37,632 nt of DNA from a virus. Its lineage: Duplodnaviria > Caudoviricetes. Location of the stretch: positions 1 through 37,632 of the IMG/VR virus record IMGVR_UViG_3300020043_002248. One strand, written 5' to 3'. Made by a program: the position numbers and the translations under genes. The notes beneath the pieces are model-generated. The model was not told the origin of the DNA, did no database searches, and saw only the letters and a list, made by a program, of their open reading frames with translations. Below are positions 19,205 to 34,984 of the stretch, piece after piece (positions within the stretch are counted from its first letter, which is position 1; the number at the start of each line of letters is the position of its first letter).

Positions 19205-20470
19205 TTAGTATCCACTTAAAATGTCAATCGGTTCGTATTCATCGTCATCGTAGTCAGTGTTGTAGCTGGTGACAGCTAACTGGTCAATATACGATAAGGA
19301 GTCAATTAAGTCATCATGAACGCCTGCTGTAGGGAACATACAGTACTGGTCAATAAAGTCTTTCCAAGCGGACTTATCCTTGTCATTCAAGGAAATACGT
19401 CCATGCTCAAACCTACCTTGTAAAGACCAAACAACCCTGTCAGTCTTCTTCTTGTTCCCGTGAGTCAGGTCTGTGATGTGTGTGTACACATTGTTTTTCC
19501 TCATCAGGTCATTCAGATAAGGAAGCACAGCATTCTTCAAGGCTCCACGTTCGATACCTACAGCGATAGGCTGGTGTTCACGTACAGCTAAGAGGATCTT
19601 AGAGGCAGTCTCTCGGATGTCCCATCGACCATGAAGGATGTCCTTAACCCACCAGTTACCGTTATCTTCTATCTTAACGATTGAGATAGCTGATTCGTCT
19701 AGTCTCTTCTTAGCAGCCCCTGCTGACTTAGCCACATCCTCAAAGCCAGCTAAGTCGATAGCGATGACGTAGGAGCCATACTGAGGCTCAGGAGAGTACT
19801 TAATCCAACTATCCTTGAAGATCTCCTGTCCAGCGTTATCGAAGCTAGAGAGGTATTCTTGACGGAAAGCAAAGGTACTCAAGGTACGCTCAGCAGCATC
19901 AATTTCCTTAGGATCGATAGTCTCGTTATCCCTAGTGGTAAAGTGCCATGAAGACCATTCCTCATCCTGCTCTTCCTGCCCTAAGTTAAAGACATCGTAG
20001 AACCAGTTACGTCCACTAGGAGTGGAAATGAACATAGCTCTACCTTTTTTATCAGACAGGGAAGCTCGAATGATCTTCTGCCAGACATCCTCTTTAATAA
20101 AGGCACATTCGTCCATGACTACATAGGTGAGTGAAACACCACGTAGAGAGTCAGGATTATCAGCACCTCGAACGAGAATCTTACGTCCATTAACTAATAG
20201 GATCTCAAGGTTATTGATATGGGAAGACTTGATGACAGGTCTGCCTAGCTCATGTAAGAGATCCCAGATAATCGTTCTAGCTTGTCCGAGGGTAGGAGCT
20301 ATGTACATCACAGCTGACCCTTCAGGACAGTTCAGAGCTTCAATGAGCAGGGTCACTGCGGAGAGCCTAGACTTACCACAGCGACGACCTGCTGCAACCA
20401 CTTTAAAGCGCTTGGTAGACTTGAAGACCTCTTGTTGCCACTTCAGTAGCTCAAAGTTCAATGAGGTCAT
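19205..20470 (-). CDS. terL: Terminase large subunit
   Basis: Walker A AGRRCGKS, Walker B VVMDE, coupling motif ISTP, nuclease motifs AIDLA and HDDLID. Confidence 0.95.
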   Translation of the reverse strand: MTSLNFELLKWQQEVFKSTKRFKVVAAGRRCGKSRLSAVTLLIEALNCPEGSAVMYIAPTLGQARTIIWDLLHELGRPVIKSSHINNLEILLVNGRKILVRGADNPDSLRGVSLTYVVMDECAFIKEDVWQKIIRASLSDKKGRAMFISTPSGRNWFYDVFNLGQEEQDEEWSSWHFTTRDNETIDPKEIDAAERTLSTFAFRQEYLSSFDNAGQEIFKDSWIKYSPEPQYGSYVIAIDLAGFEDVAKSAGAAKKRLDESAISIVKIEDNGNWWVKDILHGRWDIRETASKILLAVREHQPIAVGIERGALKNAVLPYLNDLMRKNNVYTHITDLTHGNKKKTDRVVWSLQGRFEHGRISLNDKDKSAWKDFIDQYCMFPTAGVHDDLIDSLSYIDQLAVTSYNTDYDDDEYEPIDILSGY

Positions 20471-20868
20471 TCCTTAGCCTCTACATCCGAGATGTCATAC
20501 GAGACATCATCCTGCTCAATAACAGTACTAGCTTGAGTAAGCCCTGTAATGTTAATGCTAATAGCAGGAGTACCACCGCCTTGTTTAACTTGTTCAAATG
20601 AAGACACAGGTACGATCCTGTCCACGATTAGCTTCCATGCTGCTGACTGAGCCTTATGTTCAGGATCTAAGGCAGCATCGAAGATAGCCTCTAAGACCCT
20701 AGCTGACTTAGGAGAGTTAAGCATCCTAGCTTTGTACTCATCCATGATAGCTTTGTCCCCTGCTGGACGACCACGTAACTCTCTGTTACCTTTTTTCTTT
20801 GCTACGATCTCACCCTTCTTGGGCCTACCTGCTTTACGCTTAGGTGTTACTTCTACTTCGTTAGACAT
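20467..20868 (-). CDS. Putative terminase small subunit
   Basis: Directly upstream of terL with a 4 nt overlap; basic GRP-containing N-terminus. Confidence 0.65.
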   Translation of the reverse strand: MSNEVEVTPKRKAGRPKKGEIVAKKKGNRELRGRPAGDKAIMDEYKARMLNSPKSARVLEAIFDAALDPEHKAQSAAWKLIVDRIVPVSSFEQVKQGGGTPAISINITGLTQASTVIEQDDVSYDISDVEAKE

Positions 20869-21034
20869 GGTTAGCCTTGTAGAAAGCCTTAACGTCAGTA
20901 GACACCCACTGTACGAAAGGTTTAAGGTCTTCAGGATTCAAGACATACCACTTACGGGTAGACATATCCCATTTACCACCTAAAGCTTTAACTTTGTCCT
21001 TATCGTTGTAAGGGACATCAAGATCAATACGCAT
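20861..21034 (-). CDS. DUF5710-like protein (57 aa, not in the ORF track)
   Basis: Translated by hand: MRIDLDVPYNDKDKVKALGGKWDMSTRKWYVLNPEDLKPFVQWVSTDVKAFYKANHV; AAGGAG RBS upstream. Confidence 0.78.
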   Translation of the reverse strand: MRIDLDVPYNDKDKVKALGGKWDMSTRKWYVLNPEDLKPFVQWVSTDVKAFYKANHV

Positions 21035-21159
21035 ACAGTGTTTTCTCCTTGTAGGAACACTTACTTTTATTAAAAATAGACAACAAGCTTCCTCTATAGA
21101 GTAGCTTTAATGGGTAGCTTAATGACTAGCTCTATGGGTAGACAATAAGAATTAAACGT

Positions 21160-21188
21160 AATGTATAACAAATACAGTAAAAAGTCAA
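21160..21188 (-). promoter_or_regulatory. Sigma70-type promoter for the late arm
   Basis: TTGACT-17 nt-TACATT on - strand. Confidence 0.5.
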
Positions 21189-21318
21189 GAAGTATTTACA
21201 TTAAATTAAACAATAAGTGGTATTTACACTACGTTTAACACCTATGTTCTTCATGTCGTCCTAGGAACTCTAGAGTCTCTACTTACTGTCTTGTTTTACT
21301 TGTTCCCGCATAAGGTTG

Positions 21319-21347
21319 AGCGTATCATATAAAATCTTAAAAGTCAA
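21319..21347 (-). promoter_or_regulatory. Sigma70-type promoter for the late arm
   Basis: TTGACT-17 nt-TACGCT with an extended TGn on - strand. Confidence 0.5.
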
Positions 21348-21386
21348 GTCTTTTTAGTCTATTTTGTCTATTTATTTTCTTCCTAT

Positions 21387-21490
21387 CTTCATAGACCTCT
21401 ACGACACTGCGTGTCTATGTGTCCTTACTTCATAGACCTCTTGTGTCCACTTCATAGTGCTCATGAGGTCTATGACAGGCTCCTGTGTCC
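21387..21490. repeat. Cluster of short direct and inverted repeats
   Basis: CTTCATAGACCTCT at 21387 and 21428, partial copy at 21450, inverted GAGGTCTATGA at 21465; TGTGTCC at 21418, 21442 and 21484. Confidence 0.8.
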
Positions 21491-21694
21491 AGATTAGGCC
21501 TACATTAGTGTTGTATTTACACCACAGATCTTTAAAGTCTCTATGTCTTTGATTTACTTGGTCTTTTTAGTTACTTTGATATGCTTTCTTCCATGCTCTT
21601 TTTTGTATATTTAGGAAGGTTCAGCAAAAGTAAACACAAGAGCTCTCCCCCTCCCCCCTATCAAGATACACTAATGACTCATCAGTCAGTAAGG

Positions 21695-21725
21695 TTATCC
21701 ACAGGATCTCCACAGTCTATCTACA
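21695..21725 (+). promoter_or_regulatory. DnaA box plus two degenerate boxes
   Basis: TTATCCACA (21695), ATCTCCACA (21706), CTATCTACA (21717); 11 bp period. Confidence 0.6.
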
Positions 21726-21728
21726 ATG

Positions 21729-21765
21729 TGCTTAAATAATAGGCAATATGCTTAAAAAGTAAGCA
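21729..21765. promoter_or_regulatory. Tandem Fis-type palindromes
   Basis: TGCTTAAATAATAGGCA and TGCTTAAAAAGTAAGCA, 20 bp apart; both fit GNNYA-N5-TRNNC. Confidence 0.55.
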
Positions 21766-21849
21766 GTGTAGGGCATTGTAGCACGCTATAACGTAACCTA
21801 TTAAGCACCACTACAGACACCAAACAATGCAACTATCAACGTATTGCAG

Positions 21850-21865
21850 AGCAATAACTATGCCA
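21850..21865 (-). promoter_or_regulatory. Sigma54 (-24/-12) promoter motif, leftward
   Basis: - strand TGGCATA-GTTA-TTGCT. Confidence 0.55.
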
Positions 21866-21871
21866 ACTCAA

Positions 21872-21929
21872 TGCACTATCAAGGTGCAATAATGCACCAT
21901 AGCAGGGAATCATGCACTATCAAGAGGCG
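21872..21929. promoter_or_regulatory. Three tandem NtrC-type enhancer boxes
   Basis: TGCACTATCAAGGTGCA (21872), TGCACCATAGCAGGGAA (21893), TGCACTATCAAGAGGCG (21913) versus consensus TGCACC-N5-GGTGCA. Confidence 0.6.
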
Positions 21930-22016
21930 TTGTGTACATACAACAGTGACTAAGTAAGTATTATATTTAAGGCTTATAAGATTACAATGTAAACTACAGT
22001 ACTACAAAACATAGAC

Positions 22017-22032
22017 TGGCACGGTGTTTGCT
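22017..22032 (+). promoter_or_regulatory. Sigma54 (-24/-12) promoter, rightward, upstream of the first early gene
   Basis: TGGCACG-GTGT-TTGCT, an exact match to TGGCACG-N4-TTGCW. Confidence 0.72.
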
Positions 22033-22086
22033 AAGTAATATCCGTCAAACGACAAACAACACTCACCAAGTATCGGAGCACTCACA

Positions 22087-22287
22087 ATGTCACACACATT
22101 AGACACAAACGTAAACGTCATCAAGGCACGCACAATGCTAGGCACTGTATCAGGCATCACGAGTGTAGATTCAGGCTTACTGTTAGATGATGATGGATTC
22201 TGTACATTACTCACGAAGCTGTCGCACAGTGTATCAGTTAGCGAGGGCGTGGAAGCTCTTACAGAATACGTGAACAACAACTACTGA
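22087..22287 (+). CDS. Early hypothetical protein
   Basis: GGAG RBS; first ORF after the sigma54 motif. Confidence 0.65.
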   Translation: MSHTLDTNVNVIKARTMLGTVSGITSVDSGLLLDDDGFCTLLTKLSHSVSVSEGVEALTEYVNNNY

Positions 22288-23619: not shown

Positions 23620-23741
23620 AAACAACACCCGTATCTAATTGGCCATTCCCTGCTGAATGTCCGCCTAAGCCGTGGACACCTGAGCAAGTAGAGGAATACA
23701 ATAAACAACAACGAGATAAGACACCTGAAGCACCCATGTGA
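23616..23741 (+). CDS. Proline-rich hypothetical protein (41 aa)
   Basis: MKTTPVSNWPFPAECPPKPWTPEQVEEYNKQQRDKTPEAPM; ATGA overlap. Confidence 0.55.
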   Translation: MKTTPVSNWPFPAECPPKPWTPEQVEEYNKQQRDKTPEAPM

Positions 23742-28028: not shown

Positions 28029-28469
28029 ATGAAAACATGCCAAGTTTGTAATCAAGAGTTATCATTGTTTGAATTTCCTAGAGGGAAGCAACGAAAAGAT
28101 GGCTCTTACAACTATCGACCAGCCTGTAAGGACTGCACTGTTGCACAGAATCTTGACCATTACCACAACAAAGGCGGTAAAGAGAAACAGAAGCAACGAT
28201 CGTTTAAAAACAATCTAAAGAAATATGGCATCACTCCTGAAACTTACAAAGAACTCTTCACAAAACAAGAAGGTAAATGTGCAATCTGCTCGTCAACAGA
28301 GGTATCAGTGGCACGAAGGTCTTACAACCTATTTGTTGACCACGACCACAAAACAGGAAAAGTCAGGGGACTGCTATGTCATCACTGCAACGCTGGCCTT
28401 GGACACTACAGAGACAACACAGAAACCTTACAGAAAGCAATCGAGTATCTAAATGCGAATTGCACTTGA
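28029..28469 (+). CDS. Endonuclease VII-type (HNH) free-standing endonuclease
   Basis: CAIC...VDHDHKTGKVRGLLCHHCNAGLG plus an N-terminal CxxC...CxxC finger. Confidence 0.88.
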   Translation: MKTCQVCNQELSLFEFPRGKQRKDGSYNYRPACKDCTVAQNLDHYHNKGGKEKQKQRSFKNNLKKYGITPETYKELFTKQEGKCAICSSTEVSVARRSYNLFVDHDHKTGKVRGLLCHHCNAGLGHYRDNTETLQKAIEYLNANCT

Positions 28470-31156: not shown

Positions 31157-31636
31157 ATGTTTACACGGTTAATTAAAGAACGAGACGAGCAAGGGAAGAT
31201 AAAGAGTTACGAGTTGTTATTTGACGGGAAACCTATACCAGAAGGTAAAAAGTACTGCCCTTCATGTACACAGCTTTTAGATCTATCTTCCTTTTCAGCT
31301 AAAGGTAACGCTTGTAAGACCTGCGCTACGCAAAGAGCTAAGAATTGGAGAGTTGTTAAAGAAAACAATCCAGATTGGCGAAAAGAGCGTAACGCACAGA
31401 TTGTAGAGAATAACCGGAAGTTGAAACGTAAGATGGTTGAATTGAAGGGAGATTGTTGTAGCGCTTGTGGTAACCAATATCCAGACGTTGTATACGATTT
31501 CCATCATCTTGACCCATCAGAAAAAGACTTTAACATTGGTCAGTCTCGTAACTGGCCTAAGATTGAAAAGGAGTTAGCAAAATGTGTAATGTTATGTGCA
31601 AACTGTCACCGTATCGAGCACTTCCATAATGGTTGA
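31157..31636 (+). CDS. HNH endonuclease
   Basis: CSACG...DFHHLDP...LCANCHRIEH plus an N-terminal CxxC...CxxC finger. Confidence 0.88.
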   Translation: MFTRLIKERDEQGKIKSYELLFDGKPIPEGKKYCPSCTQLLDLSSFSAKGNACKTCATQRAKNWRVVKENNPDWRKERNAQIVENNRKLKRKMVELKGDCCSACGNQYPDVVYDFHHLDPSEKDFNIGQSRNWPKIEKELAKCVMLCANCHRIEHFHNG

Positions 31637-34036: not shown

Positions 34037-34538
34037 CCAGTATTTTCATTTAATCATCAACAAACCACGTATTGTTTACGTAGAGGAACCAACAACTATG
34101 TTTGATAATTTAAAAACTTATTTGGCTAACTTCAAAGCAGACTTCATGTCCTTATGGACTAAGCCTGTAGCGTTTGTAGAGGAAGACCCTACGCTGTACG
34201 AAGATGGCTATTGGGCTTTTGAGATGTACACACCTTCTTGGATCAATGAACACGGTGAGAAAGTAGAGCCTGTCCATACAGTGCTTGTTGAGCCTCATGA
34301 GGGTACTTGGATGGAAGTCCTAGATACCGTCTTAGATGCAATGGAGAAGCACTACGGCTACAACATCAAAGAGCAAGTTTACTACTCAGTTAACTTCCCT
34401 TTGAACCAGTCTGATTTGTCCGGCTATGGTCGTTGCTTGAATGATGAACGCTTACAGCAGATCCTCTTAGCCTTCCCTGAGCTTTACTTGTCAGGTGGTT
34501 GGGGTACTGGCTCAGAACGTGAGGCTATGTTCAAATGA
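34026..34538 (+). CDS. Hypothetical protein
   Basis: 170 aa; GGAG RBS; a second possible start with GAGG RBS near 34098. Confidence 0.65.
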   Translation: MTLDQYFHLIINKPRIVYVEEPTTMFDNLKTYLANFKADFMSLWTKPVAFVEEDPTLYEDGYWAFEMYTPSWINEHGEKVEPVHTVLVEPHEGTWMEVLDTVLDAMEKHYGYNIKEQVYYSVNFPLNQSDLSGYGRCLNDERLQQILLAFPELYLSGGWGTGSEREAMFK

Positions 34539-34984
34539 AGAAGTGCACAGGCTGTGATGAAGTTCTTCCACTGTCGTCTTTTTCAAAACACGCTAAAAAC
34601 AAAGATGGCCTACAGCAAGAATGTAAAGCTTGTAATAAAACCTCTTCAAGTATTTGGCGTAAAGAGAACAAAGACGTTTTTGCTTTAAAACGAATTAAAG
34701 AACGGGCAAAAGAAAAAGGCCTTGATTTTAATTTGACTAGGGAAGACATTCAACACCCGCCTGTGTGCCCTGTTTTTGGTTTCACTTTAGAGCGGTCTAA
34801 TGACGGCCTACCTAAGAAGAACTCACCTTCTGTGGACCGTATAGACCCTAATAAAGGATATACTAAAGATAACATTCAGATAATTAGCCAGCTTGCAAAC
34901 GCAATGAAACAAAACGCTACACCAGAGCAGTTAATTGCTTTTGCAGAATGGGTTCTTAAAACATATCAAAAGGAAAGTAAATGA
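34535..34984 (+). CDS. HNH-like endonuclease
   Basis: CPVFG...SVDRIDPNKGYTKDNIQIIS...N; N-terminal CTGC...CKAC finger. Confidence 0.82.
   Translation: MKKCTGCDEVLPLSSFSKHAKNKDGLQQECKACNKTSSSIWRKENKDVFALKRIKERAKEKGLDFNLTREDIQHPPVCPVFGFTLERSNDGLPKKNSPSVDRIDPNKGYTKDNIQIISQLANAMKQNATPEQLIAFAEWVLKTYQKESK

Follow-up and report, generated by a model that had tools for sequence, protein, structure and literature searches.

We analyzed a 37,632-nt viral sequence of the Caudoviricetes (IMG/VR record IMGVR_UViG_3300020043_002248, positions 1 to 37,632; hereafter, the window) and found that the approximately 430 bp between a conserved motif, E1, and the early genes form a cassette that carries an array of sites for host DNA-binding proteins. 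The array is real and widespread. In its downstream half, at 21872-22032, we recognized a sigma-54/NtrC promoter that is well formed and host-like in geometry, and much of the array is therefore explained as an early promoter. We propose that the cassette is the first-entering end of the genome, with an NtrC/sigma-54 early promoter and a swappable coat of host proteins in front of it, a proposal for which we consider the case evenly balanced. The promoter part of the proposal is better supported than the coat part.

Genome organization

The termini of the window overlap by 121 nt and the contig is circular, so we took it as the complete genome, about 37.5 kb in length, of a podovirus-like phage. 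The terminase, portal, capsid and tail proteins are encoded on the minus strand, while the primase-helicase, DNA polymerase and ribonucleotide reductase are encoded on the plus strand; a non-coding gap (20869-22086) separates the two divergent arms. The large terminase subunit is encoded at 19205-20470 (minus strand). The first gene of the late arm (20467..20868, minus strand) lies directly upstream of it and is the probable small terminase subunit by position; its product had no PHROG or Pfam match, and a fold comparison ranked the NV1 small terminase second (Z 4.4, rmsd 4.0, 49 residues aligned). The first ORF of the early arm (22087..22287, plus strand) encodes 66 aa with no family assigned. 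No RNA polymerase gene was detected among the 54 of 120 ORFs scanned. Three endonuclease VII/HNH-type genes (28029-28469, 31157-31636 and 34535-34984) stand among the replication genes and are probably homing endonucleases.

Within the non-coding gap, a sigma-70-like repeat (family D8) occurs in two copies at 21163-21189 and 21322-21348 (minus strand), the former being a 9/12 promoter match. From their sequence, the two copies are likely promoters of the late arm. As these repeats face the terminase arm, the host sigma factors used may differ between the two arms. Three copies of a 17-bp repeat and a 14-bp inverted repeat (D4, I25) were also seen at 21381-21475, on the terminase side of E1, and are candidate binding sites for the small terminase.

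The phage has no close cultured relative; the best matches of the terminase, capsid and primase were all below 60% identity, and a blastn search with the cassette returned eight matches at chance level only. In IMG/VR, by comparison, relatives are many, with an estimated 2900 or so stretches matching the terminase patterns of the clade. Sequencing runs containing parts of the genome were mostly from freshwater (word shares of at most 0.28). A capsid search of genome contigs yielded 11 loci, mostly on short contigs in unrelated bins. One contig of a long-read Ca. Eutrophomonas MAG (L311:8110-8135; G007 contig 1) was considered as a host link and rejected as a probable chimera; in it, host DNA abuts the start of a small-terminase homologue/related structural module, inside an apparent reading frame.

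Recurrence of the array in related phages

An earlier sequence-only reading of this DNA had described a dense array of different host-protein sites at 21500..22035, an observation that proved mostly real. We collected 156 loci, of which 87 had at least 2.6 kb of upstream sequence; with the window added and near-duplicates removed, 71 were left, and 59 of these carried a poly-C anchor that forms part of E1. Gapped words were learned from the 450 bp past the poly-C in 55 relatives, with the three closest relatives excluded, a procedure that avoids post hoc choice of motifs. The top 200 gapped words matched the window cassette 74 times, compared with 3.9 +/- 3.0 times (maximum 15) in 300 dinucleotide shuffles, and across 166 genome tiles the median of this score was 2. 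The density of motifs in the cassette was, therefore, far above that of shuffled sequence, the comparison that had been suggested along with the original observation.

The sigma-54 box was the top word, found in 39/55 relatives (0.7 in shuffles), and an NtrC-type word was found in 35/58 (1.5 in shuffles), although all such counts among relatives share ancestry. The same reading had also suggested that the site classes might recur in relatives in shuffled order, and this was observed; past the poly-C, the order, number and orientation of the sites vary. Total palindrome density gave no excess for the cassette (2472 compared with 2984 on the terminase side). That finding fits an explanation by chance matches in AT-rich intergenic DNA, which does hold for the IHF labels and for the second and third DnaA boxes described below. 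For the array as a whole we find chance scarcely credible, given the cross-validated excess over the shuffles and the recurrence in unrelated phage families; for the sigma-54, NtrC, DnaA, TGAC and GTTG classes, the shuffles and the recurrence refute it. In some relatives, the cassette also holds sequences with a putative likeness to parS (L002, L120 and L124), SlmA sites (L134 and L256) and NrdR sites (L061 and L110).

A probable sigma-54/NtrC promoter in the downstream half

The forward sigma-54 -24/-12 box (22017-22032, plus strand) lies 70 bp before the ORF at 22087, and a reverse box (21850-21865, minus strand) points towards the predicted genome end. Both are exact, and they are the only exact sigma-54 matches in the 37.6-kb window. 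The two sigma-54 motifs claimed earlier were thus located, and the forward word was the top de novo word in the relatives. The box at 22017 is identical to the published sigma-54 consensus (PMC12316311). Upstream of the forward box, three NtrC-type boxes (21872, 21893 and 21913, together 21872..21929) are spaced 21 and 20 bp apart and are a likely enhancer; the first is a perfect palindrome and the third is a half-site match. They fit the 17-bp NtrC box (PMC8743547) as well as the boxes at host glnA, in agreement with the earlier description of three NtrC-type boxes at 20-21 bp steps. The distance from these boxes to the forward sigma-54 box is 103-144 bp, within the approximately 80-150 bp expected for an NtrC-activated promoter.

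Between the enhancer and the promoter is an AT-rich spacer with a TGTA-N11-TACA palindrome (21955..22006), a possible bending region judging by its composition; this palindrome class occurs in 15/58 cassettes compared with 3.5 in shuffles. An IHF site is common, but not obligatory, between an NtrC enhancer and a sigma-54 promoter. There was none at this place, the sole exact IHF match being upstream of the enhancer. On the plus strand, the first sigma-70 match of at least 10/12 near or beyond the forward box is at 23673.

The forward box was present in 43/59 loci of the clade and missing from the other 16. Exact sigma-54 matches in the clade (n=54) comprised 43 forward and 11 reverse boxes. 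The last forward box stood a median of 353 bp past the poly-C, and in 23/38 loci it was 42-73 bp ahead of the first ORF. Distances from the enhancer were phased at 10.5-11 bp (0.42-0.46, compared with 0.17-0.21 at 9.5-10 bp; n=129, not independent of one another). A strong sigma-70 promoter occupied the place in 7/16 of the loci lacking the box and in 3/43 of those with it (Fisher p 0.002, kinship ignored), and a tree of the terminases (54 rows) requires a minimum of 4-5 switches in the type of cassette. In L014, L124 and L156 the sigma-54 box is kept and the triplet upstream of it is replaced, suggesting that different enhancer-binding proteins probably bind the replacements. Two further kinds of repeated palindrome were seen where the NtrC triplet would stand in L014 (with a step of about 21 bp), L124, L156 and L009.

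We compared the phage sites with bacterial promoters by training matrices on the phage sites alone and applying them upstream of glnA in one Burkholderiales family, which may not be that of the host; a glnA locus that had just 60 bp of sequence upstream was excluded. The sigma-54 matrix scored at least 12 on the correct strand in 9/15 loci (in-gene controls, 3.0 or less), and the NtrC matrix scored at least 12 in 13/15 (in-gene controls, 7.0 or less). The spacing of the enhancer at host glnA is mostly 77-109 bp, compared with 103-144 bp in the window. In a 2.08-Mb genome (G013), glnA, glnK and amt were among the top matches of the NtrC matrix, alongside some in-gene matches. An RpoN domain was detected in 24/29 genomes of the family and NtrC above the cut-off in 26/29. 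The phage motifs are, therefore, the same as those of bacterial sigma-54 and NtrC promoters. From sequence and geometry we consider it quite likely that the forward box works as an early promoter and, with somewhat less assurance, probable that NtrC activates it.

An alternative is that the forward sigma-54 box never fires, its closed complex serving as an anchor or cap and nothing else, with the early genes transcribed from some other promoter. The sigma-54 closed complex is stable without an activator (PMC12316311), and other phage families have their boxes dispersed and pointing either way, as this explanation would have it. However, the forward box comes last in the clade, its distance to the first ORF is steady, phased enhancer boxes precede it, and no strong sigma-70 alternative is nearby. 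We regard an array without a working promoter as unlikely.

Other sites in the cassette

The upstream half of the cassette contains a consensus DnaA box (10.1101/866236) at 21695-21703, where the window has its single exact TTATCCACA, followed at 11-bp steps by two weak look-alikes (21695..21725, plus strand). Three DnaA-like boxes had been proposed here. The first is exact and its word was found in 31/58 cassettes compared with 1.5 in shuffles, whereas the window contains 102 matches as good as box 2 and 159 as good as box 3, and these two boxes, taken singly, are no better than chance. We considered whether the array might be a replication origin or an aid to duplication of a terminal repeat, at which DnaA bound to the 11-bp-phased boxes would open the DNA for the primase-helicase. 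The exact box with its two look-alikes and the presence of the word in more than half of the cassettes would suit such a role, as would the lack of a phage RNA polymerase for priming among the ORFs scanned. Against it, the exact word is missing from 27/58 cassettes, neither box 2 nor box 3 reaches significance, and the NtrC and sigma-54 sites would go unexplained; we judge an origin function improbable. A conserved, oriented array of the oriC type was rejected, as the boxes vary in number and orientation.

The TGACT-N4-AGTCA palindrome reported at 21675-21688 was located within a TGAC-N6-GTCA palindrome (21672..21691) of a class that recurs in relatives, occurring in 25/58 cassettes compared with 0.5 in shuffles and in none of the terminase-side flanks. 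The two GTTGT-N6-ACAAC-type palindromes were likewise found, a perfect one at 21929..21944 and one with a single mismatch at 21510..21525, on the terminase side of E1. The GTTG-N8-CAAC class is present in 15/58 cassettes and 9/58 terminase-side flanks (0.4 in shuffles). A HexR operator was considered for this palindrome and rejected; the HexR consensus is TTGT-N7-8-ACAA (PMC5489143), and the 6-bp spacer in the window and in relatives is 1-2 bp too short.

Two Fis-type boxes had been assigned at 21724 and 21744, where a 20-bp direct repeat (D11; 21724..21764, plus strand) is real. The Fis pattern matches about 40 places in the window, and so the repeat stands while the label is unsupported. Matches to the repeat were found in 4-6/55 cassettes and 10-13/55 terminase-side flanks, compared with 0-0.3 in shuffles. 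The claim of two IHF-like sites was not sustained: the two 13-mers occur in 13/55 and 11/55 relatives, compared with 12.7 and 12.0 in shuffles. With one mismatch allowed, the IHF pattern has 59 matches in the window, and the exact match at 21834..21846 (plus strand) is probably due to chance.

We also scanned the 2.08-Mb genome G013 with 26 phage-trained matrices for the cassette palindromes and found no general intergenic enrichment; matches were clearly coherent only for the NtrC class and for one class upstream of lexA. Given this lack of enrichment in one bacterial genome, some of the unnamed palindromes may bind phage proteins. Names such as Fur, SlmA, parS, NrdR, CRP and Fis for such sites were given by eye and are putative.

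Conserved motifs at the predicted genome end

E1 (21599..21658, plus strand) consists of a T-run motif at 21599-21632 and the poly-C at 21647-21658; it is unique in the window and conserved in 58/59 loci. A second conserved motif, E2 (21762..21790, plus strand), is present in 44/59 loci and sits 110-213 bp past E1. Both motifs had been missed by the sequence-only reading. E1 is a probable terminase cut site or left-end signal, and E2 is a candidate for the far boundary of a short terminal repeat, so that E1 to E2 may be a terminal repeat of approximately 165 bp. By eye, E1 is similar to a junction in the record of Ralstonia phage RSJ5, although the formal alignment was poor. The E1 hairpin was not significant (z -0.5).

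Of 37 different contigs whose ends fall on this side, about 15 stop between E1 and 75 bp past E2. This clustering is suggestive of a short terminal repeat and also fits assembly breaks at variable DNA or strain variation. All 17 metagenome contigs carrying the poly-C word extend at least 281 bp beyond it on both sides, and no pile-up of starts or ends was seen at four runs, for which contigs were used. A 36-kb linear contig (G001; L042, L241) has one end inside E1 and, at its other end, a long G/C run at the position of the poly-C.

The array had been placed at a probable genome end. It adjoins the conserved E1 motif; the palindrome at 21510, which had been counted with it, lies on the other side of E1. 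The position of an end next to the cassette is a predicted one. Packaging begins at the terminase-side end, and in L230, a T7-like phage whose terminase is 75% identical to that of Lau218, the array follows the terminase gene, the T7-type left-end position. From these two points we infer that the cassette end enters the cell first.

Arrays in other phage families

We searched IMG/VR without regard to family for sigma-54 boxes preceded at 99-129 bp by an NtrC box. This unbiased scan returned 53 loci (some of them near-duplicates), of which 40, from at least four families, were within 1.5 kb of terminase genes. The 40 loci come from the window clade and its sister clade, from T7-like phages, from a family with a split terminase and from two more types, and in 27 of them a G/C run separates the array from the terminase. 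Sigma-54-like boxes numbered 82 in the 39 kb around the arrays, 40 of them forced by the search, compared with nine in the remaining 172 kb. Twenty-seven of the boxes face the terminase, 15/40 loci have at least three, and head-to-head pairs occur. These arrays also contain sites that, by eye, are putatively Fur-, SlmA-, parS- and NrdR-like. No sigma-54 or NtrC boxes were found at the corresponding place in P26218 and Lau218, indicating that the design, although common, is not shared by all.

In VCPH (AP014889, L434:2351-3050), a cultured T5-like Vibrio phage, the non-coding DNA between divergent pre-early genes holds five sigma-54-like boxes in both orientations, together with three DnaA boxes; palindromes in the same stretch are presumably LexA-like. 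In the injection-stop (iss) region of DT57C (L276:1470-2085), we observed DnaA boxes and about ten tandem repeats, which we take to be Fur-like, with one presumably LexA-like box beside the DnaA boxes. A separate observation concerns ten loci (L229, L234, L243, L247, L256, L257, L261, L262, L267 and L268) with two adjacent ORFs of about 330 and 450 aa that both resemble the terminase large subunit. Several members of this group, of which four loci were scanned, have head-to-head pairs of sigma-54 boxes adjoining these ORFs.

The additional boxes, in both orientations and beside the terminase genes of several families, go beyond what one promoter explains, and the earlier statement that the array is more than one promoter needs was upheld. 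They bear on the possibility that the array is purely regulatory, a single complex and perhaps divergent promoter activated by NtrC and tuned to nitrogen and growth by DnaA and other proteins. Its canonical promoter geometry and the sigma-70 replacement in loci without the box argue for this explanation, and the RpoN holoenzyme by itself can act as a repressor of overlapping promoters (PMC8743547), which would give extra boxes a use. What it accommodates poorly are the multiple and head-to-head sigma-54 boxes, many of which face the terminase side, the upstream sites at 250-350 bp from the promoter, whose class, number and orientation vary freely, and the occurrence of two site classes on the terminase side as well. 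We consider a purely regulatory array a serious but less probable explanation.

In a further explanation, replicated copies of the array would act as a decoy, titrating DnaA, sigma-54 and NtrC off the host chromosome. The sites are near-perfect and serve several unrelated global regulators, as would be expected of a decoy, but a sponge would have no need of a position at the packaging end, where 40/53 loci are found, and one to five sites per class would presumably give it little capacity. A decoy function is, in our estimation, very improbable.

Proposed function of the cassette

We return to the reading given at the outset, in which the cassette combines a coat of host proteins with an early promoter. 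The terminase would cut in or near E1, so that the cassette would be packaged last and be the first DNA into the cell. DnaA, the sigma-54 holoenzyme, NtrC and unnamed repressor-type proteins would then bind within the first 450 bp, ahead of the synthesis of phage proteins. These bound host proteins could keep the end in the cytoplasm and hinder nucleases that load at ends. Phosphorylated NtrC would open the forward sigma-54 complex, and the host polymerase would transcribe the early arm, possibly drawing in more DNA, with early expression following the nitrogen state of the host. Any strong binder would suffice for a coat, which would explain the swapping of sites. For the other sites of the cassette, a role in such a coat instead of in regulation has, in our view, slightly less than an even chance. 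The idea of a first-entering landing pad of host-protein sites, which accompanied the original observation, draws support from the recurrence and from the extra boxes in both orientations beside terminases; it was narrowed by the explanation of the downstream half as an early promoter.

A sigma-54 promoter needs an activator to fire, and an NtrC enhancer before the early genes would consequently tie infection to nitrogen limitation. If this is true, the start of lytic infection is conditional on nitrogen starvation of the host in an abundant freshwater clade. More tentatively, many unrelated tailed phages of Proteobacteria may cap their first-entering DNA with a swappable array of the strongest binding sites for host proteins (sigma-54 polymerase, NtrC, DnaA and others), the NtrC gate being a feature of this clade. 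Borrowed host proteins would then anchor, shield and draw in a gene-free end. Such an array would amount to an entry device encoded in cis plus a nutrient gate, of which the T5 injection-stop region would be one case. How the ends of phage DNA survive and keep entering early was posed as a question, and left open, in the available part of a study of T5 (10.1101/866236). A 500-bp fragment makes two matters testable, the survival and entry of the end before phage proteins are present and the reading of host nutrient state by a lytic phage. The array could double as a fingerprint of host range, and one version of it exists in T5-like phages that are in culture.

Comparison with known systems

In open-access full texts, with subscription journals mostly outside the search, we found no description, among the matches listed, of an NtrC enhancer on the early promoter of a lytic phage, nor, again among the matches listed in open-access full texts, of packaging ends that carry multi-factor arrays in a range of phage families. 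Several known systems share parts of the arrangement. The left end of T7 carries the constitutive sigma-70 promoters A1-A3, from which the host polymerase pulls DNA in, and T7 encodes its own polymerase. The window phage is similar in having a host-polymerase promoter just inside the end predicted to enter first; unlike T7, its promoter is activator-dependent and no polymerase gene was found. NtrC-activated promoters of the glnAp2 type, such as those of Burkholderiales glnA, glnK and amt, share the -24/-12 box, the 17-bp boxes and a comparable distance between them, but the phage copy precedes early genes near a predicted genome end and is accompanied by a reverse box and unrelated sites. The Pseudomonas phage YuA has a sigma-54-like promoter, P015 (PMC10914365), and so is likewise a lytic phage with a host sigma-54 promoter; in the part of that source available to us, an enhancer, a link to NtrC and a genome-end position are not named for P015.

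A further likeness is to the iss region of T5, early-entering non-coding DNA with repeats and DnaA boxes, for which binding of DnaA at the membrane has been proposed in silico (10.1101/866236). The window array is similarly non-coding and repeat-rich, with a consensus DnaA box, and it is predicted to enter early. The differences are several. As described in the same source, the T5 region is situated some 9 kb into a terminal repeat of 10 kb, approximately 8% into the genome, has eight fixed boxes and needs A1/A2. The window array lies no further than 450 bp from the predicted end, combines many classes of site whose order is shuffled, and has a promoter as its last part; it contains one consensus DnaA box compared with eight in T5-like phages. 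No A1/A2 family match was found among the 54 of 120 ORFs scanned. Identity with the T5 injection-stop region was rejected, since the array adjoins E1, which is the wrong position, and A1/A2 were not found among these ORFs. The terms NtrC, Fur, LexA and sigma do not occur in the main text of 10.1101/866236. The earlier remark that no named system resembles the array was accurate insofar as none is described as a whole in the open-access matches listed, while the DnaA boxes of the T5 injection-stop region are a partial precedent. The separate parts of the arrangement, therefore, have precedents, in the DnaA boxes of T5 iss and the sigma-54-like promoter of YuA.
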